Assembly: GCA_965220745.1 (NCBI GenBank)
Contig: CBDCQT010000012.1
Span: 736,001 to 800,000, forward strand
Length of the DNA stretch: 64,000 nt
From: Alphaproteobacteria bacterium
Lineage (GTDB): Bacteria; Pseudomonadota; Alphaproteobacteria; UBA828
Direction of reading: 5' to 3'
The translations under genes and the position numbers were made by a program. Under the pieces are notes generated by a model. It saw only the letters and a list, made by a program, of their open reading frames with translations. It did not search any database and was not told where the DNA came from. The stretch's first letter is position 1; the number at the start of each line of letters is the position of its first letter. Of this stretch, positions 3,452 to 51,340 are shown in pieces.

Positions 3452-5431
3452 ATGACGACGGCACCGAGCGAGGCGCTCACGCTCTACGGCACCGAGCAGG
3501 AGGCGCCGCAAGCGCGGACCATCACCGCCGGCGCGCTCACGGCTGAGCTCGAGGCCGGCAAGCTGCGCTGGATCCGCTACGGCGGCGTGGAGGCGCTGCG
3601 CGGCCTTGCCTTCGTCGTGCGCGGCGGCGGCTGGGAGACCTATGCGCCGCAGATCGCCAACCTGGAGATCGAGGAGACGGACGGCGGCTTTCGCGTGGGC
3701 TACGACGGGCGCATCGACTCCGCCGACGGCGTGCTCACCTACCACGCTGACATCGTGGCGGAGAACGAGCGGAGCCTGGTCTTCACGGTCGAGTTCACGC
3801 CCGAGACCGAGTTCAGGACCAGCCGGACCGGCTTCGTCGTGCTGCACCCGGTGGAGGGCGTAGCGGGCGAGGCCTGCACCATCACCCACGGCGACGGCGC
3901 GGTGGAGGAGACCGCCTTCCCCGGCCTGATCAGCCCGTTTCAGCCCTTCTACGACATCGCCGCCATGCGCCACCGGGTCTCGCCGGGGGTCTGGCTCACC
4001 TGCCGCTTCGAAGGCGCCGACCCGTGGGAGACGGAGGACCAGCGCAACTGGACCGATGCCTCCTACAAGACTTACTACCGCCCGCTCGCGCTGCCCTTTC
4101 CTTATACGCTGGCTGCCGGCGAGACGCTGCGGCAGGTCGCGACGCTCAGCATCGAGGGGGGCTCGGCTGCGGTGGCGACCGGGGCAGGCGGCGACGATAC
4201 GGTGGAGATCGCCGTCGGCGGTGCGACCGGAACGCAGATGCCGGAGATCGGGCTCGGCGTTGCCAACCTGGAGCACGATCATCTCGACCACGGGCTCGAT
4301 CTGCTCAAGGCGCTCGGGCCGGGGCACATTGTCTGCGAATGCGACCCGCGCGACGCGCACGCCGCAGACGCGCTCTCCGCCGGCCGGGGCCTCGCCAAAG
4401 CCCTCGATGCCGAGGTGGTGCTGGAAATCACGGTGCCCTGCGAGCGGCCGGTGACGGACGAGCTGGCGCAGGCCGCCGAGATCGCGGGCCGCGCCGGGCT
4501 TTCGCCTGCTGCCATCGTGCCGGAGCAGGCGCGCCTCCTGAAGTTCACGCTGGAGAAGATCGCGGCCCTCGGCATCCCCGACTTCGACAAGGTCTACGGT
4601 GCGGCGCGCGCGGCGTTCCCCGGCGTGCGCCTGGGCGGCGGCGTCTTCACCAACTTCACGGAGCTTAATCGCAACTGCGCGACGCCCGACCTGTTCGACT
4701 TCCTGACCCACGCCACCTGCGCCGTGGTGCACGAGCCGGACGACCTCTCGGTGATCGAGACGCTGCAGACGTTGCCGGATATCGTCGCTTCGGCCAAGGC
4801 GCTGGCCGGCAGCAAGCCCTACCGTATCGCGCCGAGCGCCATCGGCATGCGCTTCAACCCCTATGGGCCTGACGTCCACCAGAACGGCGACAACGGGCGC
4901 TACTCCTTCAACCGCCAGGACCCGCGCCACCGCGCGCTGCTCGGCGCGGCCTTCACCCTGGGCTATGCGGCTCGGGTGGCGCCGCTCGGCCTGGAAGCGT
5001 TGGCGATCGGCCAGCCCTCCGGCGCGCTCGGCATGGTCTATCGCCGGACCGAGCACCCGCAGCCCTGGTTCGACGATCTCGACGGGCCGGCGGTGATGCC
5101 GCTCTATCACATCGTGACGGCGCTCGCGGCGGCGAAAGGGGCGGCAGTCCGCGCCGTGTCCAGCAGCGATGCGACGCAAGTGTTGGGGCTCGCCTGCGAG
5201 AACGGAGGCGGCACCCTGCTCTGGCTTGCCAACCTCACGCCGGCGCCCCAGACCGTGACCGTCTCCGGCCTCTCGGGCGGCACGGCCACCATCGGCCGGC
5301 TCGATGCGAGCAACTTCGTGGACGCTGTGACCGATCCGGCGGGCTTCGCTGCAAGCCCAGGCCAGCCGGGCGACCCCGGCCGCCTCGAATTGGCGCCGTT
5401 TGCCGTCTCGCGCATCCAGATCGGCGTCTAG
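3452..5431 (+). CDS. apnL: D-apionate lactonase-like protein
   Basis: 659 aa. LYGT...AGALTAELEAGKLRWIR, RTGFVVLHP, ETEDQRNWTDASYKTYYRPL and FTELNR motifs are typical of the ApnL family. Substrate not proven. Confidence 0.7.
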   Translation: MTTAPSEALTLYGTEQEAPQARTITAGALTAELEAGKLRWIRYGGVEALRGLAFVVRGGGWETYAPQIANLEIEETDGGFRVGYDGRIDSADGVLTYHADIVAENERSLVFTVEFTPETEFRTSRTGFVVLHPVEGVAGEACTITHGDGAVEETAFPGLISPFQPFYDIAAMRHRVSPGVWLTCRFEGADPWETEDQRNWTDASYKTYYRPLALPFPYTLAAGETLRQVATLSIEGGSAAVATGAGGDDTVEIAVGGATGTQMPEIGLGVANLEHDHLDHGLDLLKALGPGHIVCECDPRDAHAADALSAGRGLAKALDAEVVLEITVPCERPVTDELAQAAEIAGRAGLSPAAIVPEQARLLKFTLEKIAALGIPDFDKVYGAARAAFPGVRLGGGVFTNFTELNRNCATPDLFDFLTHATCAVVHEPDDLSVIETLQTLPDIVASAKALAGSKPYRIAPSAIGMRFNPYGPDVHQNGDNGRYSFNRQDPRHRALLGAAFTLGYAARVAPLGLEALAIGQPSGALGMVYRRTEHPQPWFDDLDGPAVMPLYHIVTALAAAKGAAVRAVSSSDATQVLGLACENGGGTLLWLANLTPAPQTVTVSGLSGGTATIGRLDASNFVDAVTDPAGFAASPGQPGDPGRLELAPFAVSRIQIGV

Positions 5432-5468
5432 CCGACAAGTATTCCGACGGATCGAAAAAGGGAAGGAC

Positions 5469-6269
5469 ATGGCAGAACACGCCCTCAAGGAGATGTCCCG
5501 CCACGGCCGGCTCAAGGTCGGTACCTTCGTGGTCGAGTTCAGCACGCCGGGAATCGGCCAGATCCTGAAGGCCGCCGGCTGCGAGTACGTGCTGCTCGAC
5601 ATGGAGCATTCGGGCTTCGGCTTCGACACGCTGAAGCAGATGCTGCGCTACATGCAGGCTGGCGACATGCCGGCGATCGTCCGCGTGCCGTCGCGCGAGT
5701 ACCACCACGCGGCGCGCGCCATGGACATGGGGGCCGAGGGCATCATGCTGCCGATGGTGGGCTCGGCCAAGGTAGCGAGGGAGCTGCTGAGCTACGTCAA
5801 GTATGCGCCCGAAGGAGAGCGCGGCGTCGCGCTGCAGATCGCGCACGACCGCTACGCGCCGGGGGACACGAAGAAGAAGCTGCGCGACGCCAACCGGCGC
5901 TGCACCTTCGTGGCCTTGATCGAGACCGCCGAGGGCATCGAGAACGTCGACGACATCGCGGCGATCGAAGATGTCGACGTGCTCTGGATCGGCCACTTCG
6001 ACCTCTCGGTTTCCATGGGCATCGCCGGCCAGTTCGACCACCCTGACTTCATCGCGGCGGTGGCGCGCGTGGTGCAGGCGGCGAAGAGGAACAACAAGTC
6101 CCTGGGTCGGCTGGTGCCCAACGTCGATGTCGGCGTGGCGCTGTTCAACGAAGGCTTCGACTTCATCTGCTATTCGGGCGATGTCTGGCTGCTGCAGCAG
6201 GCGATGCGCGAGGGCGCGGAGGGCCTGCGCGCCCAATGCAAGCGCGGCCGGCGGCGGCCGAAGAGATAA
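5469..6269 (+). CDS. HpcH/HpaI aldolase family protein
   Basis: LLDMEHS, VRVP, LIETAEGIENVDDIAA and IGHFDLSVSMG motifs; GGAAGG RBS before ATG 5469. Confidence 0.9.
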   Translation: MAEHALKEMSRHGRLKVGTFVVEFSTPGIGQILKAAGCEYVLLDMEHSGFGFDTLKQMLRYMQAGDMPAIVRVPSREYHHAARAMDMGAEGIMLPMVGSAKVARELLSYVKYAPEGERGVALQIAHDRYAPGDTKKKLRDANRRCTFVALIETAEGIENVDDIAAIEDVDVLWIGHFDLSVSMGIAGQFDHPDFIAAVARVVQAAKRNNKSLGRLVPNVDVGVALFNEGFDFICYSGDVWLLQQAMREGAEGLRAQCKRGRRRPKR

Positions 6270-6285
6270 GGGAGATCAACGGGTT

Positions 6286-7338
6286 ATGGCTGAAAAGTTT
6301 AGGGTTGCACTGAGCAGGGACTTTCTCACGGCGGAGGGCGAGCCGCTCTTCCCCATGTTCGACCGCACGCCGCTGGACGACGACCCGGATATCGAGTGGC
6401 GCTATCTGGAGAACGGCGAGGGGCCAGTGGACGCGTCCGAGCTTGCCGGTCACGACGCGCTGATCCTGCTGGCCCAGCGCTTCGATCGCTCCAGCGTGCC
6501 GGCCGACGGCCGGCTCACCATGGTCGCGCGCTTCGGCGTCGGCTACGACAGCGTGGACGTGGCCGCCTGCACCGACAACGACATCGCGCTGGTCATCACG
6601 CCCAACGGCGTGCGCCGGCCGGTGGCGGTCGCCATCATCGCGCTGATCCTCGCGGTCACCTGCAAGCTCCTGCTCAAGCACCAGCTCACCCTGGAGGGCC
6701 CGCCCGGCTTCGCCCGCAAGGGCGCCCACATGGGGGTGGGCCTCGTCGGCAAGACGCTCGGCTCGGTCGGCATCGGCAACATCGGGGCCGAGATGTTCCG
6801 CATGGCCGCCCCCTTCGACATGAACTTCATGGCCTGCGACCCCTACGCCGACCCGGCGGTGGCCGAAGAGCTTGGTGTGCAGATGGTCGGTCTCGACACG
6901 GTCTGTCGCGAGTCGGACATCCTGACCGTGAACTGCCCGCTCAGCGACGAGACCCACCACATCGTCGATGCGCGGCTGATCGGCCTGATGAAGCCCACGG
7001 CCTATTTCGTGAACACCTCGCGCGGCGGCACGGTCGACCAGAGGGCGTTGTGCGCGGCGCTGCAGGAGGGGCGGATCGCGGGCGCCGGCCTCGACGTGCT
7101 CGACCCGGAGCCGCCGGACCCGAGCGATCCCATCCTCAAGCTCGACAACGTGGTGTTCGCACCGCACGCGCTGGCCTGGACCGACCAGTGCTTCGCCGGG
7201 CTTGGCGCCGATGACATCGTCGCCTGCCAGGCCTTGATGCGGGGCGAGGCGCCTGCGGCGGTCGTCAACCGCGAGATTCTCGATAACGCGGCTTGGCGGG
7301 CCAAGCTCGCGCGCTACGCCGAGACCTTCGGCCGCTGA
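6286..7338 (+). CDS. D-isomer-specific 2-hydroxyacid dehydrogenase
   Basis: RFGVGYDSVD, GIGNIG, VNTSRG, AGLDV and APH motifs; GGAG RBS. Confidence 0.9.
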   Translation: MAEKFRVALSRDFLTAEGEPLFPMFDRTPLDDDPDIEWRYLENGEGPVDASELAGHDALILLAQRFDRSSVPADGRLTMVARFGVGYDSVDVAACTDNDIALVITPNGVRRPVAVAIIALILAVTCKLLLKHQLTLEGPPGFARKGAHMGVGLVGKTLGSVGIGNIGAEMFRMAAPFDMNFMACDPYADPAVAEELGVQMVGLDTVCRESDILTVNCPLSDETHHIVDARLIGLMKPTAYFVNTSRGGTVDQRALCAALQEGRIAGAGLDVLDPEPPDPSDPILKLDNVVFAPHALAWTDQCFAGLGADDIVACQALMRGEAPAAVVNREILDNAAWRAKLARYAETFGR

Positions 7339-7399
7339 TCGCGCGTCTTTGCCCGGATGCAACTCGTTACTGCGCGCGAGACCCTGTGGGCGCGAGCGA

Positions 7400-7607
7400 C
7401 CCGCACCATGGTGCGGTGCACGGTGGGCGCCGGCTGCGTCACGAATGCGCCATGACGTGCGTGCGCTGTAGGACCACGGCCGGCGGCGGCATGATGAGCG
7501 GGCTCGCTCGGTACGATCCCGCGCGCGTGGCCGGTCGCCGTGGAATCCCATCCCATCACACTTATCCCGCCTAATCCCGGCGCGTCCCGCATGAATTTTA
7601 TGTTCGC
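7400..7607 (-). repeat. Dispersed intergenic element, copy 1 (homologous to 48741-48917, opposite orientation)
   Basis: Minus strand reads GCGAACATAAAATTCATGCGGGACGCGCCGGGATTAGGCGGGA ... CATG-N9-TGACGC-N12-CCGTGCACCGCACCATGGTGCGGG; both blocks recur at 48741-48917. Confidence 0.75.
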
Positions 7608-7670
7608 ACGATCCCACTGGGCCCGCCGCAGGCCAGAAGCCCGGCCCCGCGCCGGAGGCCGCGGCGCGCC

Positions 7671-8828
7671 GTGACGGGCTTCGACTTCCCGCCGCCGGCG
7701 ATGCCGCCCGGCACCGACGCGCTCCGCGCCGAGGTCCGCGCCTTCCTCGCGGACTCGCAGGAGGCCCTGGGCTGGCGGCCGGATTCCGACTTCGGCTCTG
7801 ACTGGTCGGCCACCTTCAGCCGTGCCCTCGGTGCGCGGGGTTGGATCGGCATGTGCTGGCCCCGGCGCTATGGCGGGCACGAGCGCTCGGCGCTGGAGCG
7901 CTACGTCGTGATCGAGGAGCTGCTGGCGGCCGGCGCGCCGGTCTACGCCCATTGGGTGGCGGACAGGCAGAGCGGCCCGCTGCTGCTGCGCTTCGGCACC
8001 GAGGAACAGCGCCAGACGATCCTCCCCCGGATTGCCGCAGGCGAGTGCTACTTCGCCATCGGCATGAGCGAGCCCGATTCCGGCTCCGACCTCGCCTCGG
8101 TGCGCACCCGCGCTGAACGGACGGCGAACGGCTGGCGCATCAATGGCACCAAGGTGTGGACCAGCAACGCGCAACGCTCGCAGTACATGATCGCGCTCTG
8201 CCGCACGGGACCTGCCGGCGAGAGCCGCCACGAGGGCCTCAGCCAGTTCCTGATCGACCTCGAAGCCGACGGCGTGAAGGTCAGCCCGATCGTCAACTTG
8301 GCCGGCAAGCACGACTTCAACGAATGCGTCTTCGAGGATGTGGTGATTCCTGCCGACCGGCTGATCGGCCAGGAGGACGACGGCTGGCGTCAGGTGACCG
8401 GCGAGCTCGCACTGGAGCGGAGCGGGCCCGAGCGCATTCTTAGCACCTTCCATCTCTTCGCCGCGCTGGTCGAAGCGGTAGGCCCCGAGCCCGAGTCGCG
8501 GCTCGCCGAGGCGATCGGGCGCCTCACGGCGGAGTTCTACGCGCTGCGGGCCATGTCACTCGCGGTCGCCGGCCAGCTGGAGAAGGGGGAGCTACCGGAC
8601 GTCGAGGCCGCCATCGTCAAGGACATGGGCACGCGCTTCGAAGCCGAGGTCGTGGAGACGCTGCGCCACGCCGTGCCGGTCGAGCCCGTCGCGGGCGGAA
8701 GCGCCAACGCGCCGTCGCTCGAAGCCGCGTTGGGTGCGACGGTGCTGGGGCTGCCCTCGTTTACCCTGCGCGGCGGCACCAACGAGATCCTGCGCTCGAT
8801 CATCGCCCGTGGCCTGGGAGTCAGGTGA
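7671..8828 (+). CDS. Acyl-CoA dehydrogenase (alpha-type chain)
   Basis: IGMSEPDSGSDLASVRT, NGTKVWTS and TLRGGTNEILR motifs; GTG start with GGAGG upstream. Confidence 0.92.
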   Translation: MTGFDFPPPAMPPGTDALRAEVRAFLADSQEALGWRPDSDFGSDWSATFSRALGARGWIGMCWPRRYGGHERSALERYVVIEELLAAGAPVYAHWVADRQSGPLLLRFGTEEQRQTILPRIAAGECYFAIGMSEPDSGSDLASVRTRAERTANGWRINGTKVWTSNAQRSQYMIALCRTGPAGESRHEGLSQFLIDLEADGVKVSPIVNLAGKHDFNECVFEDVVIPADRLIGQEDDGWRQVTGELALERSGPERILSTFHLFAALVEAVGPEPESRLAEAIGRLTAEFYALRAMSLAVAGQLEKGELPDVEAAIVKDMGTRFEAEVVETLRHAVPVEPVAGGSANAPSLEAALGATVLGLPSFTLRGGTNEILRSIIARGLGVR

Positions 8829-8835
8829 AGGTGCG

Positions 8836-9909
8836 ATGAGCGACGAGACAACACGCTTGGTCGAGCAAATCGCTGACGACCTGTTCGCGGCGGAGAGTGA
8901 GGCTGCGCGCGAGGCGCTCGTCCAGAATAGGTGGCCGCAGCGGATTTGGCAGATTTTCGCCGAGACCGGGCTGGCGCACGCGGCATTGCCGGAGGAAGCG
9001 GGCGGTGCGGGCCTCGCGGCGGGGCTTGCGGTGCTGCGCGCGGCAGGGCGCCATGCCGCGCCGATCCCGGTCGCGGAGACGATGATCGGAACCCTGCTTT
9101 GCCACCGCGCCGGCGTCGAGGCGCCGGACGGCCCGCTCACCCTCTATGCGCCGCCGACCGGGGCGTTGGCTGCTCAGCCGGAAGTGCTGGACGATATCGA
9201 CGCCGCCACTCTGCCGCGGGTGCCGTGGGCGCGAATCGCCGCTGTGCTCGCGGTGGGCGCTCCAGGCCATGGTCTGGCTTTCGTCAAGCCCAGCAACGTG
9301 ATCGAGGGTGCGAACCTGGCCGGCGAGCCGCGCGACGATGTGGTCGTCTCCGGCCCACCGGACCGCCTCCTTCCCCTGCCGCCGGAGGTGGACGGCTTCG
9401 CCCTCATGGCGCTCGCCCGCGCCGCCCAGTTGCGGGGCGCGATGGAGCAGGTGCTCGCCATGAGCCTGCAGTATGCGAGTGATCGCGTGCAGTTCGGCCG
9501 CCCGCTCAAGCGCTTCCAGGCAATTCAGCACTACTTGGCCGAAATTGCCGGGGAGGCCGCAGCCACCGGGGCTGCGGTGGATGCGGCGGCGCAGGCGTCG
9601 AATACCTTCGGCTTCGCTGCGGCCAAGGCGCGGGCGAGCCAGGCGGCGGGCACGGTCGCCCGTCTCGCCCATCAGGTGCACGGCGCCATCGGCTACACCG
9701 CCGAGCACGACCTGCACCACTGGACCAAGCGGCTCTGGGCCTGGCGCGACGAGTGCGGCAACGAGGCCTACTGGTGGCAGGGGCTCGGTGCGCACGCCGC
9801 GCAAGGCGGCGGTGCGGCGCTCTGGCCGGCGATGGTCGCTGCCTCCGGCAGCGCGGTATCAAGAGCCGCCTCCGGCAGCGCAGTAGCAGAGGAGGGAGAT
9901 CGCCCGTGA
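8836..9909 (+). CDS. Acyl-CoA dehydrogenase (short, partner-type chain)
   Basis: RVQFGRPLKRFQAIQH and HQVHGAIGYTAEH motifs; lacks the N-terminal SEP..GSD motif. Confidence 0.88.
   Translation: MSDETTRLVEQIADDLFAAESEAAREALVQNRWPQRIWQIFAETGLAHAALPEEAGGAGLAAGLAVLRAAGRHAAPIPVAETMIGTLLCHRAGVEAPDGPLTLYAPPTGALAAQPEVLDDIDAATLPRVPWARIAAVLAVGAPGHGLAFVKPSNVIEGANLAGEPRDDVVVSGPPDRLLPLPPEVDGFALMALARAAQLRGAMEQVLAMSLQYASDRVQFGRPLKRFQAIQHYLAEIAGEAAATGAAVDAAAQASNTFGFAAAKARASQAAGTVARLAHQVHGAIGYTAEHDLHHWTKRLWAWRDECGNEAYWWQGLGAHAAQGGGAALWPAMVAASGSAVSRAASGSAVAEEGDRP
9838..9891 (+). repeat. Imperfect 27-bp tandem duplication in the 3' end of the acyl-CoA dehydrogenase gene
   Basis: GCTGCCTCCGGCAGCGCGGTATCAAGA / GCCGCCTCCGGCAGCGCAGTAGCAGAG, encoding AASGSAVSR-AASGSAVAE. 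Confidence 0.7.
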
Positions 9910-10697
9910 GCGACGAGATCCGCCTGGAGGTCGCGGAGCGCATCGCGACGATCACGCTCAACCGGCCCGAGCGGCGCAACGCCTTCACCCGCTCCATGAT
10001 CGACGCCTGGGCGGCAGCGCTCGCCGAGTGCCGCGACCGCGAAGACGTGAACGTGGTGGTGGTGACCGGGGCGGGCAAAGCCTTCTGTAGCGGCGGCGAC
10101 ATCAAGGAGCTGATGGGGGAGGGCCTGGAGCAGGCGCCGGCCGAGCAGCGGGCGACGATCGGCGAGCACGTGCATCGCATTCCGCTCACCCTTGCCGACA
10201 TGGACAAGCCGGTGATTGCGGCGATCAACGGCGCGGCCATCGGCGCCGGCCTCGACCTTGCACTCGCGATGGACCTGCGCTTCGCCGCAGCCTCGGCCAG
10301 GTTCGCGGAGACCTACGTCAAGGTCGGGCTCGCGCCCGGCGCCGGCGGCGCGCACTGGCTGCCGCGGCTGGTGGGATCGGCGAAGGCGCTGGAATTGCTG
10401 TGGACGGGCGAGGCCATCGACGCGGCGGAGGCCGAGCGCATCGGCCTGGTCAACCGGGTCTGCGCCGACGACGCGCTGATGCCCCAGACCATGGAACTCG
10501 CACGCCAACTGGCGGACGGTCCGACTTTGGCCATCCGCGCCATCAAGCGGCTGGTGCGAGACGGCATCGGCGGCGATCTTCGCGCCGGACTGGATCGGGC
10601 TTCCGCTACCTACGGCGTGCTCGGCTCCACCGACGATCACCGTGAGGCGGTAATGGCGTTCGTCGAGAAGCGCGCGCCGCGCTTCCGGGGCCGGTAG
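9906..10697 (+). CDS. Enoyl-CoA hydratase/isomerase (crotonase family)
   Basis: ITLNRPERRNA, AFCSGGDI and KPVIAAINGAAIGAG motifs; GTG start overlaps the upstream TGA (GTGA). Confidence 0.92.
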   Translation: MSDEIRLEVAERIATITLNRPERRNAFTRSMIDAWAAALAECRDREDVNVVVVTGAGKAFCSGGDIKELMGEGLEQAPAEQRATIGEHVHRIPLTLADMDKPVIAAINGAAIGAGLDLALAMDLRFAAASARFAETYVKVGLAPGAGGAHWLPRLVGSAKALELLWTGEAIDAAEAERIGLVNRVCADDALMPQTMELARQLADGPTLAIRAIKRLVRDGIGGDLRAGLDRASATYGVLGSTDDHREAVMAFVEKRAPRFRGR

Positions 10698-47981: not shown

Positions 47982-48692
47982 GTGACGCGGATCGTCCTGG
48001 TGACCCATTCGGAGCGCGCCAATCCCGGCAAGGTGCGCGAGGCGCTGCATGCGCGGGGTTGCGAGACCGAGGTCTGCTTCGTTGCCGGCGGCGCGGCGCT
48101 CCCGCCCATGAACGGCGGCCGCCTGCAAGGCTACGACGGGGCCGCGGTTTTCGGCGGCCCGATGAGCGCGTGCGATGTCGACGAGCATGCGTTCCTGCGT
48201 GAAGAGACCGAATGGATCTCCGCGCAGCTCGCGGCCGACGCGCCGCTTCTCGGCATCTGTCTCGGCGCCCAGATCATGGCCCGCGCCCTCGGCGGGCGCG
48301 TCTATCCCCATCCCGAGGGATTGTGCGAGGTCGGCTATCAGCCGCTCGATCCCGCCAACGAGGATTGTCCGCTGTTCCCGTCGCCCATTCATGTCTTTCA
48401 CTGGCACCGCGAAGGCTTCGACCTGCCGCCGGGGGCGGAGCTGCTGGCGCGGGGCGTCATCTTCGAGAACCAGGCGTTCAGCCACGGCGCGCGGGCGTTC
48501 GGGGTCCAGTTTCACCCGGAGATGACGCCGGTGACGCATGAGCGCTGGCTCAACAACCCGAAGGCCCAGAAATACTTTTCGCGGCCGGAGGTTCCCTCCG
48601 CCGACCGGCAGCGCGCCGACTCCGTGCGCTACGACCCGGCGGTGCACCGCTGGCTGGACGGCTTTCTCGATCTCTGGCTGGAGCGCTTTTAG
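47982..48692 (+). CDS. Class I glutamine amidotransferase-like protein
   Basis: FGGPMS, LGICLGAQ and QFHPE triad motifs. Confidence 0.88.
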   Translation: MTRIVLVTHSERANPGKVREALHARGCETEVCFVAGGAALPPMNGGRLQGYDGAAVFGGPMSACDVDEHAFLREETEWISAQLAADAPLLGICLGAQIMARALGGRVYPHPEGLCEVGYQPLDPANEDCPLFPSPIHVFHWHREGFDLPPGAELLARGVIFENQAFSHGARAFGVQFHPEMTPVTHERWLNNPKAQKYFSRPEVPSADRQRADSVRYDPAVHRWLDGFLDLWLERF

Positions 48693-48740
48693 CCCGCACT
48701 TCTCGCCAACGTCGCGATCCGGATCGGCGTCCCACCTGGG

Positions 48741-48917
48741 GCGAACTTAATTTCATGCGGGACACGCCGGGATTCTGCGGGACAGGCGGTCAAGGGGCGG
48801 GACGCGATCCCGGTGAGAGTTGCGTTTGGTCCTGCCGGTCGTGGCCACTCTTTCTTGCGCTGCATGAGGCGAGCCTGACGCGCCCGCCGCGTGCCGTGCA
48901 CCGCACCATGGTCCGGG
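48741..48917 (+). repeat. Dispersed intergenic element, copy 2 (homologous to 7400-7607)
   Basis: GCGAACTTAATTTCATGCGGGACACGCCGGGATTCTGCGGGA ... CATG-N9-TGACGC-N12-CCGTGCACCGCACCATGGTCCGGG; lies between two convergent genes. Confidence 0.75.
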
Positions 48918-48927
48918 CTCGATTCGT

Positions 48928-48960
48928 TAGAGCGTGTCCGTCAAAGACGAACACGCTCTA
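48928..48960. repeat. REP/MITE-like palindrome with TAGAGC ends
   Basis: TAGAGCGTGT-CCGTC-AAA-GACGA-ACACGCTCTA; 15-bp arms with one mismatch. Confidence 0.6.
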
Positions 48961-48990
48961 GTCGAGCTGGGCCGCCTCGCTCGACAGGAC

Positions 48991-49031
48991 AAGAAAAAGG
49001 GCGGCGGGGGGTCTTGCATCCCCCGCCGCCC
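48991..49031 (-). terminator. Rho-independent terminator of iorAB
   Basis: 12-bp GC stem (GGGCGGCGGGGG / CCCCCGCCGCCC) followed by TTTTTCTT on the minus strand, 14 nt after the stop codon. Confidence 0.85.
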
Positions 49032-49045
49032 GGTCGTCCGCGAGT

Positions 49046-51340
49046 TTACGCAGACATCAGTTGATCGCCGATCGGCAGCCTGCGGATGCGCTTGCCGGTG
49101 GCGTTAAAGATCGCGTTGACCAGCGCCGGCGTGTACGGCGGCACGCCGGGCTCGCCCACTCCGCACGGGCGCAGATGCGTGAAGTCCTCGACGATGTGCG
49201 TGCGCACATCGAGAGGTGCATCGTCCATACGGGTGATGGTGTAGTCGTGGAAGTTGCTCTGGTCGACCGCCCCCTGGGTGGTGGTGATCTGCCCATGCAT
49301 CGCGACCGAATGGCCGTAAATGGCAGCACCCTCCATCTGCTTCTTCACCCCTTCCGGATTGACATAGCGGCCGCAGTCGATCGCCATGTCCACCTGCGGG
49401 ATGTGAAGCGAGCCGTCGTCCCGGACGACAACATGCACCGCACACCCCACGTAGCTGTGGAAGCTGCGGTGGCACGCGATGCCCAGGCCATGGCCTGGCG
49501 GCATCGCCTTGCCGTAGCCCGACTTCTCGGTCACCACGCGAAGTACGTTGGAGAGCCGCTTCGGCATGATCGGCCAATCCTCGATCGAGTCGCCGTAGTT
49601 CCAGTGCTCCGGGACGCCGTCCTGGGTGAGGTCCATCACGTCCGCATCGCCGATCAGCTCCAGCAGGAACTCGACCGGGTCGCGGCCGGCAGCCTCCGCC
49701 AGCTCGTTCGCGAAGCAGTTCATCGCAAACGCGTGCTGGATGTTGTTGACCGAGCGATACCAGCCGACCCGGATCATGGCGTCGGCCTCGCCGTTCTCGA
49801 TGCGGAGGTTCGGCACCTGGTTATAGGGCGTGTCGATGAGGCCAAGCCCGTACTCAAGCGCATGGCCGGTCCGCATCGTCGGTGCCCAGAGCGCGATGAG
49901 CGTGGGCCACGCGCCCGAGTGATGCCACGCCGTGACATTGCCCGAGTCGTCGAGCCCTGCTCTCAGGCGATGGGCGCTCGCGGCGTGGTAGAAGCCCTGC
50001 TGGATCTCGTCCTCGCGCGTCCACTGCACCCGCACCGGGGCACCGATCTTGCTGGAAAGGATCGCCGCCTCGCACGCGAAGTCGGGCTTGGATTTGCGGC
50101 CGAAGCCGCCGCCCAGCAGCGTCACCTCGCACTCGACATCGGTCTGCTCGATGCCCAACGCGTCCGCCACGTATTGCCGGACCCAGTTGGGTGCCTGAGT
50201 CGAGGTCACGACCTTGACCGGCATCTGCGTGGCGTCGGCGAGCGCCACCGGCGGCTCCATCGGCGTGTGGATGAAGTAGGGCACGAAGTACTCGGCCTCC
50301 ATCACCTGGGCGGCCGAGCCCAGCGCCTCGTCGACGTTGCCGCGATCGCGGATGACGTGACCGCCGGCACGGGCCGAAGCCATGAGCTCGTCGTTGTAGG
50401 TGCTCGAATCGTGCCGGACGTTGGGGCCGCCATCCCACTCGATGACGAGCCTGTCACGTCCTTCCATTACCGACCACGTGTTGGTGCCGATCACCGCGAC
50501 GCCACCCAACGCCCGGAACTCGGCCGGCTTGTCGTCGGCAAGCGCCGGAATCTCGATCACCTGCTCGACGCCCGGAACCTTGAGCGCCTCGCTGGCGTCG
50601 AACGACTTCACCTTGCCGCGATAGACCGGCGGGCGCGCCACGACGGCGATCTTCATGCCGGGCACGCTGATGTCGGCGCCGTAGGTGGCGCCGCCGGTGC
50701 TCATGTCGTAGTTGTCGACCACCGGCATGTCGCGGCCGATGTACTTCCACTGCGACTTGTCCTTGAGCTTCGGCGCCGCGTCGCCGGTCGGCACCGCGAT
50801 GTCGGCGGCGGCGTCCACCACCTCGCCGAAGTCGAACCACTGGCCCGTACCGGAGTGGTAGAGGCGATGGTCCTTGGCATAGACCTCGCTGGGATCGACG
50901 CCCCACTTCCTGGCCGCTGCCTGCTCAAGCACATAGCGGCCGGCCGCGCCCAGCTCGCGCATGATTTCGAAATGGTGGCGGGTGCTGCGTGAGCCGTCGG
51001 TGTTCTGCTGGTCCTTGCCGGCGGGGTCGAACTTGGTCTCGTCGCCCGGTGCCTGCCAGATCTTGACCCGCTGCCAGTCGGCTTCGAGCTCGTCGGCCAG
51101 GATCATCGGTATGCCGGTGCGCACGCCCTGACCCATCTCGGAGCGGCTGCACGTGAGCGTGACCGTTCCGTCGTCCGAAATCTCGACGAAGAGATTGGGC
51201 TTGACCGAGTTGCCGTTGGCCTGGCCGCGCGCCGTCGAGATCAGGGAACCGGTGGAGACGTTGGCGCCGAGCACGAAGGCGCCCGTGACGCCGGCGGACT
51301 TCAGGAAGGTGCGCCGGCTGATGTTCTGCACGCCGAACAT
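49046..51340 (-). CDS. iorB: Isoquinoline 1-oxidoreductase beta-type molybdopterin subunit (xanthine dehydrogenase family)
   Basis: ISRRTFLK, SEMGQG, LGGGFGRK, WTREDE and GVGEPG motifs. Substrate unknown. Confidence 0.88.
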   Translation of the reverse strand: MFGVQNISRRTFLKSAGVTGAFVLGANVSTGSLISTARGQANGNSVKPNLFVEISDDGTVTLTCSRSEMGQGVRTGIPMILADELEADWQRVKIWQAPGDETKFDPAGKDQQNTDGSRSTRHHFEIMRELGAAGRYVLEQAAARKWGVDPSEVYAKDHRLYHSGTGQWFDFGEVVDAAADIAVPTGDAAPKLKDKSQWKYIGRDMPVVDNYDMSTGGATYGADISVPGMKIAVVARPPVYRGKVKSFDASEALKVPGVEQVIEIPALADDKPAEFRALGGVAVIGTNTWSVMEGRDRLVIEWDGGPNVRHDSSTYNDELMASARAGGHVIRDRGNVDEALGSAAQVMEAEYFVPYFIHTPMEPPVALADATQMPVKVVTSTQAPNWVRQYVADALGIEQTDVECEVTLLGGGFGRKSKPDFACEAAILSSKIGAPVRVQWTREDEIQQGFYHAASAHRLRAGLDDSGNVTAWHHSGAWPTLIALWAPTMRTGHALEYGLGLIDTPYNQVPNLRIENGEADAMIRVGWYRSVNNIQHAFAMNCFANELAEAAGRDPVEFLLELIGDADVMDLTQDGVPEHWNYGDSIEDWPIMPKRLSNVLRVVTEKSGYGKAMPPGHGLGIACHRSFHSYVGCAVHVVVRDDGSLHIPQVDMAIDCGRYVNPEGVKKQMEGAAIYGHSVAMHGQITTTQGAVDQSNFHDYTITRMDDAPLDVRTHIVEDFTHLRPCGVGEPGVPPYTPALVNAIFNATGKRIRRLPIGDQLMSA

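Follow-up and report, generated by a model that had tools for sequence, protein, structure and literature searches.

In several phages the small-terminase gene carries a packaging (pac) site of short repeats within or next to it, as in P1 pacA (hexanucleotide repeats), P22 gene 3 and SPP1 gene 1. For phage Mu, two reports (PMC4390567, PMC2582627) describe promoters that depend on the activators Mor and C: they have a -10 hexamer but lack a typical -35, and a 16-bp imperfect dyad with its centre at -43.5, to which the activator binds, replaces or overlaps the -35 element. Bases immediately downstream of this dyad are also important. Here we analyse a repeated intergenic element that resembles both kinds of site. 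It occurs twice in a 64,000-nucleotide stretch of a genome from an uncultured alphaproteobacterial genus (assembly GCA_965220745.1, contig CBDCQT010000012.1, hereafter C12, positions 736,001 to 800,000 of the forward strand; "the window" below), with copy 1 around 7400-7607 and copy 2 around 48741-48917, and consists of two conserved blocks, A and B, separated by a variable middle. We regard it as fairly probable that both window copies are relics of a module in which a Mor/C-type late promoter (block B) was joined to a repeat array (block A) at the 3' end of a terminase gene.

With the Mu promoters (Pm; Plys, PI, PP and Pmom) block B has in common a 16-bp imperfect dyad, a usable -10 hexamer without a proper -35, conserved bases just downstream of the dyad, a place before Mu-like lysis-like, head and portal genes, and a Mor-family gene in the same genome; if transcription starts at the predicted point, a dyad centre 43.5 bp from the start would be a further common feature. 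It differs in that its dyad is GC-rich and unrelated to that of Mu, in that the predicted start coincides with a start codon, which would yield a leaderless message, and in number, with about 50 copies per genome, most of them not before a gene, versus five per phage. With the pac sites of P1, P22 and SPP1 the module shares a small-terminase-family gene (PF11985, PHROG 426) and a phased repeat array at its 3' side that flanks an AT-rich patch. Unlike those genes, the one in the module stands alone, away from the large terminase gene, and the module exists as eight intact and about 40 degenerate copies per genome, with binding and cleavage at the array being putative.

The two window copies belong to a genome-wide family

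When 7280-7680 (minus strand) was aligned with 48680-49060 (plus strand) by MAFFT, blocks A and B aligned and the middle was diverged and of variable length. In whole-genome blastn (4.82 Mb) the block A match was 86% identical over 43 nt (E 5.7e-6) and the block B match 83% over 42 nt (E 7e-5), confirming the similarity between 7400-7607(-) and 48741-48917(+) that an initial annotation of the window had drawn from a hand alignment. The flanks of the two copies are unrelated, as had also been stated: copy 1 lies between a 2-hydroxyacid dehydrogenase and an acyl-CoA dehydrogenase gene, and copy 2 between a glutamine amidotransferase gene and that of a molybdopterin-binding oxidoreductase subunit. 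The description of the element as present twice holds for the window only. Iterated nhmmer over the genome, the kind of search that the annotation had proposed for finding further copies, detected 51 block-B and 30 block-A copies, including the two A/B pairs inside the window. They form 28 same-strand pairs, 23 lone B blocks and two lone A blocks, and the gap between the paired blocks is 46-223 bp in 23 pairs (short copies) and 489-673 bp in the other five (long copies).

All five long pairs contain an open reading frame (ORF) that lies opposite to the strand on which the element had been read, starts within block B and runs through block A. In other metagenome-assembled genomes, block B adjoins the start of a gene related to Mu gp27 in 31 of 32 loci, the exception being a contig end, and block A lies at the 3' end of that gene in 21 of the 32. 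Because the gene runs from block B to block A, we read the element from B' to A' (the blocks in functional orientation), i.e. on the plus strand for copy 1 and on the minus strand for copy 2, and the reading strand of the initial annotation was not supported. A coding reading on that strand was dropped once the opposite-strand gene had been found. The frames reported there do exist (48755-48961(+), 68 aa; the ATG at 7592 is in frame within an ORF at 7314-8453(-)), but the frame that ends in VHRTMVR is on the wrong strand, and the doubt already attached to this shared ending, as possibly due to chance, was right.

Block B resembles a Mor/C-dependent promoter

The conserved positions of block B keep fixed linear spacings across the 51 copies. 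The dyad CCGGACCATGGTGCGG is exact in 25 of these and has one mismatch in a further 16, and in 43/51 an ATG has its A at a distance of exactly 43.5 bp from the centre of the dyad. Taking this A as +1, a -10-like hexamer (CAGGAT-type) occupies -12 to -7 and keeps A2 and T6 in 44/51 copies, and a TGCAC[GA] sequence, found in 38/51 copies and matching TTGACA at three of six positions, occupies -35 to -30; the 17-bp spacer between them is variable and GC-rich. The TGC-N3-GCA stretch that had been likened to PhaR boxes sits within this conserved dyad-plus-TGCAC core.

The phage genes of the same genome give this arrangement a context. A lone B' is located directly upstream of each of three Mu-like late gene clusters on contig C10, one of them an operon for head protease, scaffold, major head, adaptor, neck and tail proteins, the others including a Mu-type portal gene (PF06074) and a DUF5675/phrog_6637 pair, and B' precedes the portal gene in all four genomes checked. 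A 16-bp dyad, a -10 hexamer without a typical -35, Mu-like genes downstream and an activator gene in the genome are all present. Block B has the anatomy of a Mor/C-dependent Mu promoter, with a predicted start point and putative activator binding. A dimeric activator would bind the dyad centred 43.5 bp upstream of the start point and stand in for the missing -35 contact, and RNA polymerase would use the weak CAGGAT-type -10, starting at or next to the conserved ATG, so that the message would be leaderless or nearly so. Before the protease operon (C10 9908-9787) and the portal gene (C10 117322-117428), the ATG at the predicted start opens ORFs of 42 and 17 codons, respectively, whose stops were seen by eye to overlap the start codon of the phage gene (ATGA / TGATG); this overlap suggests leaderless translation coupled to the late gene.

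Intact copies carry a gp27-like gene that short copies lack

The ORF of the long copies matched PF11985 (Phage_Mu_Gp27) with an E value of 3e-27 and PHROG 426 (terminase small subunit) with 4e-33. The genome holds nine PF11985 matches, namely six close paralogs, two diverged full-length genes and a truncated one, and eight copies of the module hold an intact gp27-like gene with its start in block B and its end in block A; there, the ATG of block B opens the small-terminase-family gene. The six close paralogs are 82-93% identical to the first of them, and their ratios of nonsynonymous to synonymous substitution (dN/dS 0.18-0.49 across 15 pairs) indicate that they have been kept as proteins. Their conserved unit ends inside the array, and the reading frames continue into unrelated flanking DNA. 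This terminase-small-subunit-like protein is the sole product of the long copies, and no catalytic domain was found in it. An AlphaFold model (mean predicted local distance difference test score, pLDDT, 61.5) shows a confident helix-turn-helix at residues 30-90, long helices at medium confidence and a disordered tail, the part encoded by the array (residues 200-262) having pLDDT <50. Foldseek of the model against the PDB gave no match at E <=0.001, and a profile search of PDB sequences with the protein gave nothing below E 0.25. In viral contigs a single distant relative was found, in which translation of the gp27-like gene is coupled to that of the gene following it (large terminase, by eye), and no array accompanies it.

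Neither window copy contains a PF11985 ORF, all nine genome matches lying elsewhere, and no phage gene lies downstream of the B' block of either. The gene has been lost from both (lengths 208 bp for copy 1 and 177 bp for copy 2); its body would have been deleted, leaving ORFs of 40 and 58 codons without a conserved frame. Over all short copies, an ATG stands at the fixed place in 23/23, the frame between this ATG and the block-A core is spread evenly over the three offsets (8/7/8, binomial p 0.52), and a stop intervenes in 5/23. One could propose instead that the short copies are a small protein family, with a short ORF running from the ATG of B' into A', conserved termini and a variable middle; the fixed ATG fits this idea, as does the likeness of one reading of block A' (IPPNPGxSR) to the tail of the intact protein (IPADPGES). 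The uniform frame offsets and the stops argue that they are not such a family. Further points are that the conservation of blocks A and B extends to third codon positions, that orthologs of copy 1 differ mostly by residue-altering changes (by eye) and that the matching tail of the intact protein is predicted to be disordered, and we hold a small protein to be highly improbable. A 15-codon upstream ORF (MVRCT...IAP) was likewise considered and dropped, its stop not being conserved and its middle varying freely. The initial annotation had proposed a family of non-coding elements; the element is indeed a repeat family, and for the window copies the frame counts agree with the non-coding reading.

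Compared with the long copies, the short ones look as if a longer module that bore the gene had lost its interior. As reconstructed from the sequences, this module would have three parts, promoter B, the Mu gp27-like gene and repeat array A; the genus carries the family in about 50 copies per genome. The two window copies would then be gene-less relics of the promoter and repeat-array module, and most likely have no role on their own beyond that of a putative orphan activator-dependent promoter and protein-binding array.

Block A is a helically phased array linked to the gp27-like gene

Block A' is built from a repeated unit of GGGAT type, which reads ATCCC on the functional strand; most copies have three to about eight such units, and one copy (C11 37558) has about 18. 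After these come an AT-rich patch and then a single further unit. Over the 30 arrays, 91 of 127 unit spacings fall at 9-11 bp (60 at exactly 10), compared with 7% in mononucleotide shuffles. In copy 1 the exact 10-bp phasing noticed for three cores was reproduced (TCCC/GGGA at 7564, 7574 and 7584). A second gp27 subfamily, about 47% identical, is accompanied by a different 10-bp array, of TTGGGCC type, which has the opposite repeat orientation and also ends in an AT-rich patch. Among the 20 loci that could be placed out of 42 examined, the ATCCC-type array was present in 15 of 16 subfamily-I loci, the exception (L051) having few units of either type, and the TTGGGCC-type array in 4/4 subfamily-II loci.

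Short repeats in or beside a small-terminase gene are what is seen at pac sites, and the module matches this in form only. Reasoning from such sites, we favour the possibility that block A, as the 3' end of the module, is a pac-like binding array to which the terminase-like protein would bind. With the activator dyad in block B and the phased repeats in block A, the element does look like the protein-binding module that the initial annotation had offered among its interpretations. Its comparison with iteron-type sites did not hold, the unit being 10 bp and not about 17-22 bp, and the neighbours being terminase-like or metabolic genes, with no replication initiator.

A Mor-like activator gene is distributed with block B

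A gene for a 115-aa Mor-like protein was located at C10 100895-101242. The protein scored 27.7 bits against PF08765 (Mor; cut-off 24.9) and matched phrog_836, annotated as late transcriptional activator, with an E value of 8e-14. Its distribution was compared with that of a 21-nt block-B core, scanned with <=2 mismatches and with the reversed pattern as control. Of the 21 genomes of the genus, 18 contain the core, with 9-69 occurrences each, and three (G012, G016 and G017) do not; nor is it present in any of 23 genomes from nine other genera of the family. The reversed pattern gave 0 in all genomes scanned. The Mor-like protein was found in 16 of the 18 core-bearing genomes, the misses being G001 (92% complete, in 460 contigs) and G007 (67% complete). 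The three genomes of the genus that lack the core gave no match to it, and the 23 others gave one (weak, at 39% identity). This co-distribution fits a shared system.

Scattered Mu-like genes and a possible transfer agent

The Mu-like genes on C10, which lie outside the window, form three clusters: 4047-9966 with head protease, scaffold, major head, adaptor, neck and tail genes; 96858-101242 with a lysis-like pair, a CI-like repressor, Gam, GemA and the Mor-like activator; and 115808-118666 with large terminase and portal genes. The ORFs in the tens of kilobases between the clusters appear by eye to be host genes of transporter and hydantoinase type. The portal gene is single-copy and >=84% identical in 17 of the 18 motif-bearing genomes, with only broken or distant copies in G013, and the major head gene is single-copy and 92-100% identical in 17 genomes and was not found in G018. 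The distance from the Mor-like gene to the portal gene is 16.5-23 kb in eight genomes; in G004 these two genes lie at 4.987 and 5.004 Mb, far from the major head gene (3.327 Mb). No Mu-type transposase was detected, but the search with PF02914 (Mu DDE domain) was uninformative as its control matched nowhere. Judged from gene content and placement, this gene set looks like a case of domestication, similar to that of gene transfer agents (GTAs). It shares with multi-locus GTAs such as RcGTA (PMC5026251, PMC6854486) single-copy phage structural genes at conserved places, split over distant loci amid host genes, and here this holds for most species of the module-bearing clade. It differs from RcGTA in that its source phage is Mu-like and not HK97-like, in that its production of particles is putative, and in that these genes are outside the window, with the major head gene not found in G018 and the portal broken in G013.

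A more far-reaching reading is that the genus has a domesticated Mu-like particle system, with scattered structural genes fired by one Mor-like activator through block-B promoters, and that the roughly 50 modules and relics, the two window copies among them, serve as packaging start sites. We consider this rather unlikely. If it were true, headful packaging could begin all around the host chromosome, the modules would gain a transmission advantage for themselves, and the arrays, as packaging sites, would provide a way of distributing transduction start points along the chromosome. This would also be the first Mu-derived transfer agent, as none was found described in a full-text literature search of partial coverage.

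For the reading that we prefer, of decayed promoter-array modules, the main interest is that the genus keeps many copies alongside scattered, conserved Mu-like phage genes. Two decayed copies in the window would here expose a system with about 50 copies per genome of a promoter of the Mu type that depends on an activator, most often linked to a small-terminase-like gene standing on its own and to a helically phased array. The records and sequencing runs of the relatives are labelled as sponge-associated metagenomes. On its plain form, the copies would be ready-made orphan promoters that could tie host genes to a phage-derived regulator, a candidate being the acyl-CoA dehydrogenase gene located 64 bp downstream of copy 1.

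History of the copies at their sites

At the copy 1 site the element is present in the relatives G011, G015, G006, G004 and G014, and an A'-only remnant in G013 and G009; the site in G008 is 69 bp long and lacks the element, and in G012, G016 and G017 the two flanking genes abut. Copy 2 was found at its site in G006, G015, G008 and partly in G004, its middle being replaced in G008 and G004. Two loci of long copies are filled in the present genome (G000) and in G006 or G011, and the copy is absent in G008 (2/2) and G015 (1/1 assessable). The extra DNA at these two loci is a composite of several repeat families, and no target-site duplication was detected when they were compared with G015 and G008. 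Filled and unfilled sites among the relatives indicate that copies have been gained or lost between species. Copies 1 and 2 themselves appear old and stable, because their sites are shared with species in which the flanking DNA has no more than 83-85% identity.

Other small inserts use the copy 1 site as well. By eye, G005, G002, G018 and G003 (loci L015-L018) carry there a pair of genes for an AbrB/MazE-like antitoxin and a PIN-domain toxin, the second of which is truncated in G003, and the site is a hot spot for small inserts.

Alternative explanations

The initial annotation had listed a non-autonomous mobile element among the possibilities, which in its present form would be similar to a miniature inverted-repeat transposable element (MITE), with A and B as ends for a transposase or recombinase supplied in trans and the middle as cargo or deletion scar. 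Part of this stands: like MITEs and repetitive extragenic palindromic (REP) sequences, the element is short, multi-copy and intergenic, the middle of its roughly 50 dispersed copies varies between conserved ends, the short copies look internally deleted, and close species differ in presence or absence at the copy 1 site and at the two long-copy loci. The copies are also biased in orientation, 40 of 53 being co-directional with the upstream gene (binomial p 0.0003, with a crude gene caller based on GC content at third codon positions, GC3). What distinguishes them from MITE and REP sequences is that blocks A and B are unrelated in either orientation, so that there are no terminal inverted repeats, that neither junction pair examined has a target-site duplication and the inserts are composite, and that no transposase partner is at hand. 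The long copies encode only the gp27-like protein, which has no catalytic domain, and the only proteins of the genome with a Mu-transposase-C domain belong to an IS21-family element whose ends, with TGACCG repeats and an 8-bp duplication, are unrelated. Moreover, copies 1 and 2 are old and stable, and promoter and gene-3' functions would explain the "ends" by themselves; we therefore regard mobility of the MITE kind as unlikely. A separate suggestion, that the phased repeats recall MraZ sites, agrees with the arrays in form, i.e. at least three direct repeats with a GGG core and a 10-11 bp period. The operator of Escherichia coli MraZ consists of three TGGGN repeats with 10-bp spacing. The genome has a mraZ gene (PF02381; C5 352.8 kb), and upstream of it, at C5 352690-352745 on the strand opposite the gene, there are four to five ATGG(G/T)A-type boxes about 10 bp apart, two of which contain GGGAT, the block-A core; these boxes presumably serve MraZ as its native operator. 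A host protein, MraZ or another, might then bind the block-A arrays, with the module carrying or mimicking host operator repeats. Against this, no copy of the array lies at the mraZ gene, the arrays are tied to the phage-derived gp27-like gene (21/32 loci in other genomes), and they are confined to the module-bearing genomes of one clade, whereas MraZ is near-universal (the control found it in 7/14 genomes). The second gp27 subfamily, with its different and oppositely oriented repeat, argues in the same direction. We keep this explanation as a rival, quite a weak one in our estimate.

A small RNA (sRNA) gene or a cis-acting structured RNA, including a GGA-rich sponge of the CsrB kind on the strand originally read, would agree with the intergenic location, the conserved blocks and the many GGA motifs on that strand. 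The RNA tests went against it. Folding energies were no better than those of dinucleotide shuffles (z +0.67, +2.18, +1.79 and +1.69 for both strands of both copies), the RNAalifold consensus of the 51 block-B rows was empty on both strands, and no Rfam match was obtained within the element at the gathering threshold or at E up to 1. The conserved positions keep fixed linear spacings and are not paired columns. The CsrA-sponge variant was discarded because csrA was not found in this 99.96%-complete genome, while the control found it in three genomes. The sRNA explanation is thus close to refuted, and very improbable in our judgement.

Several observations weigh against the relic-module reading itself or limit its support. 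A strict sigma-70 consensus scan of 7250-7750 returned no promoter and gives no support, although an empty scan is expected for an activator-dependent promoter. Metatranscriptomes were uninformative: only 5-8% of sampled words were present in two runs, on 6800-8200 the two flanking genes were covered by contigs from relatives (90-95% alike), and a thin RNA signal on 7364-7457 probably came from other copies, the contigs being without strand or ends. Similarity to blocks A and B was the criterion by which the family copies were collected, so part of their "conservation" reflects ascertainment. The match of the Mor-like protein is just above the Pfam cut-off and was missed by the whole-genome Pfam search, and its co-distribution with the core, confined to one clade, amounts to a single evolutionary event. 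The link between array type and gp27 subfamily rests on two subfamilies and could be shared descent only, and the similar 10-bp-spaced GGGA(T)-type boxes of the native mraZ promoter mean that a host protein could bind the array. Finally, the -10 window of copy 1 lacks T6.

Features of the window copies and neighbouring repeats

In functional orientation, copy 1 extends over 7400..7617 on the plus strand as a promoter-like B', a 40-codon relic ORF and array A'. The nhmmer matches were C12 743400-743457 for B (window 7400-7457) and C12 743555-743607 for A (window 7555-7607). The 16-bp perfect palindrome CCGCACCATGGTGCGG, which had been spotted in this copy, was found at 7401..7416; it has one mismatch to the family consensus CCGGACCATGGTGCGG and is the proposed Mor/C-type activator dyad. 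It is followed on the plus strand by the -35 window TGCACG (7417..7422), poor as a -35 yet strongly conserved in the family, and by the -10 window CACGAA (7440..7445, worked out from the sequence), where A2 is kept and the loss of T6 may have weakened the promoter. The conserved ATG, which marks the predicted +1 at a distance of 43.5 bp from the centre of the dyad, opens the 40-codon relic ORF (7452..7574, +), which shows no protein conservation, the changes in the G011 and G015 orthologs being mostly residue-altering (by eye). Array A' covers 7545..7615 (+), with TCCC cores at 7545, 7550, 7564, 7574, 7584 and 7611 and the AT-rich patch ATGAATTTTATGTT between the last two.

Copy 2 runs over 48729..48917 on the minus strand (nhmmer A, C12 784746-784788; B, C12 784860-784917). 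Its dyad at 48901..48916 equals the family consensus CCGGACCATGGTGCGG with 0 mismatches, and its -10 window CAGGCT (48872..48877, -), a sequence found in three family copies, keeps both A2 and T6. The ATG at the predicted +1 (48865-48863) opens a 58-codon relic ORF (48689..48865, -) in a frame that differs from that of the block-A core (offset 1). Array A' (48729..48803, -) has TCCC cores at 48803, 48783, 48773 and 48763, followed by the AT-rich patch and, at the end, an inverted terminal GTGGGAC (48735-48729).

Other repeats were noticed in the course of the analysis. The IS21-family element mentioned above is present in two identical 2,932-bp copies (C10 140231-143162 and 184119-187050), encodes IstA (rve and Mu-transposase-C domains) and IstB, and has an 8-bp target duplication, TTCCTTCT, and multiple TGACCG repeats at both ends; the Mu-transposase-C (PF09299) matches, considered as candidates for a Mu transposase, were rejected because they belong to it. 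Further intergenic repeats cluster with module copies, for example at C12 350090-350180 and C7 308385-308470, and comprise a GGCAAACGCCTCGTCGGTTGCCGG hairpin unit, a GTCATGCCCGGACTTGATCCGGGCATC unit and CGCTGACTCTTTCA-type short repeats; the intergenic regions of the genus seem to accrete repeats. Directly upstream of the promoter block of copy 2, and outside the module, lies a palindromic mini-repeat of about 30 bp, GAGCGTGT...ACACGCTC (48931..48959), which G006, G015 and G008 lack at this position. About 19 more copies of it occur elsewhere in the genome, and its relatives occupy other polymorphic intergenic sites in G008. Beyond it, at 48990-49030, a GC-rich hairpin with a T-run gave a sub-threshold Rfam P17 match (22.9 bits vs 45) that is likely due to chance. 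This hairpin lies just past the stop of the gene for the 764-aa molybdopterin-binding subunit (49046-51340, -), is kept in four relatives, and is probably the terminator of that gene.

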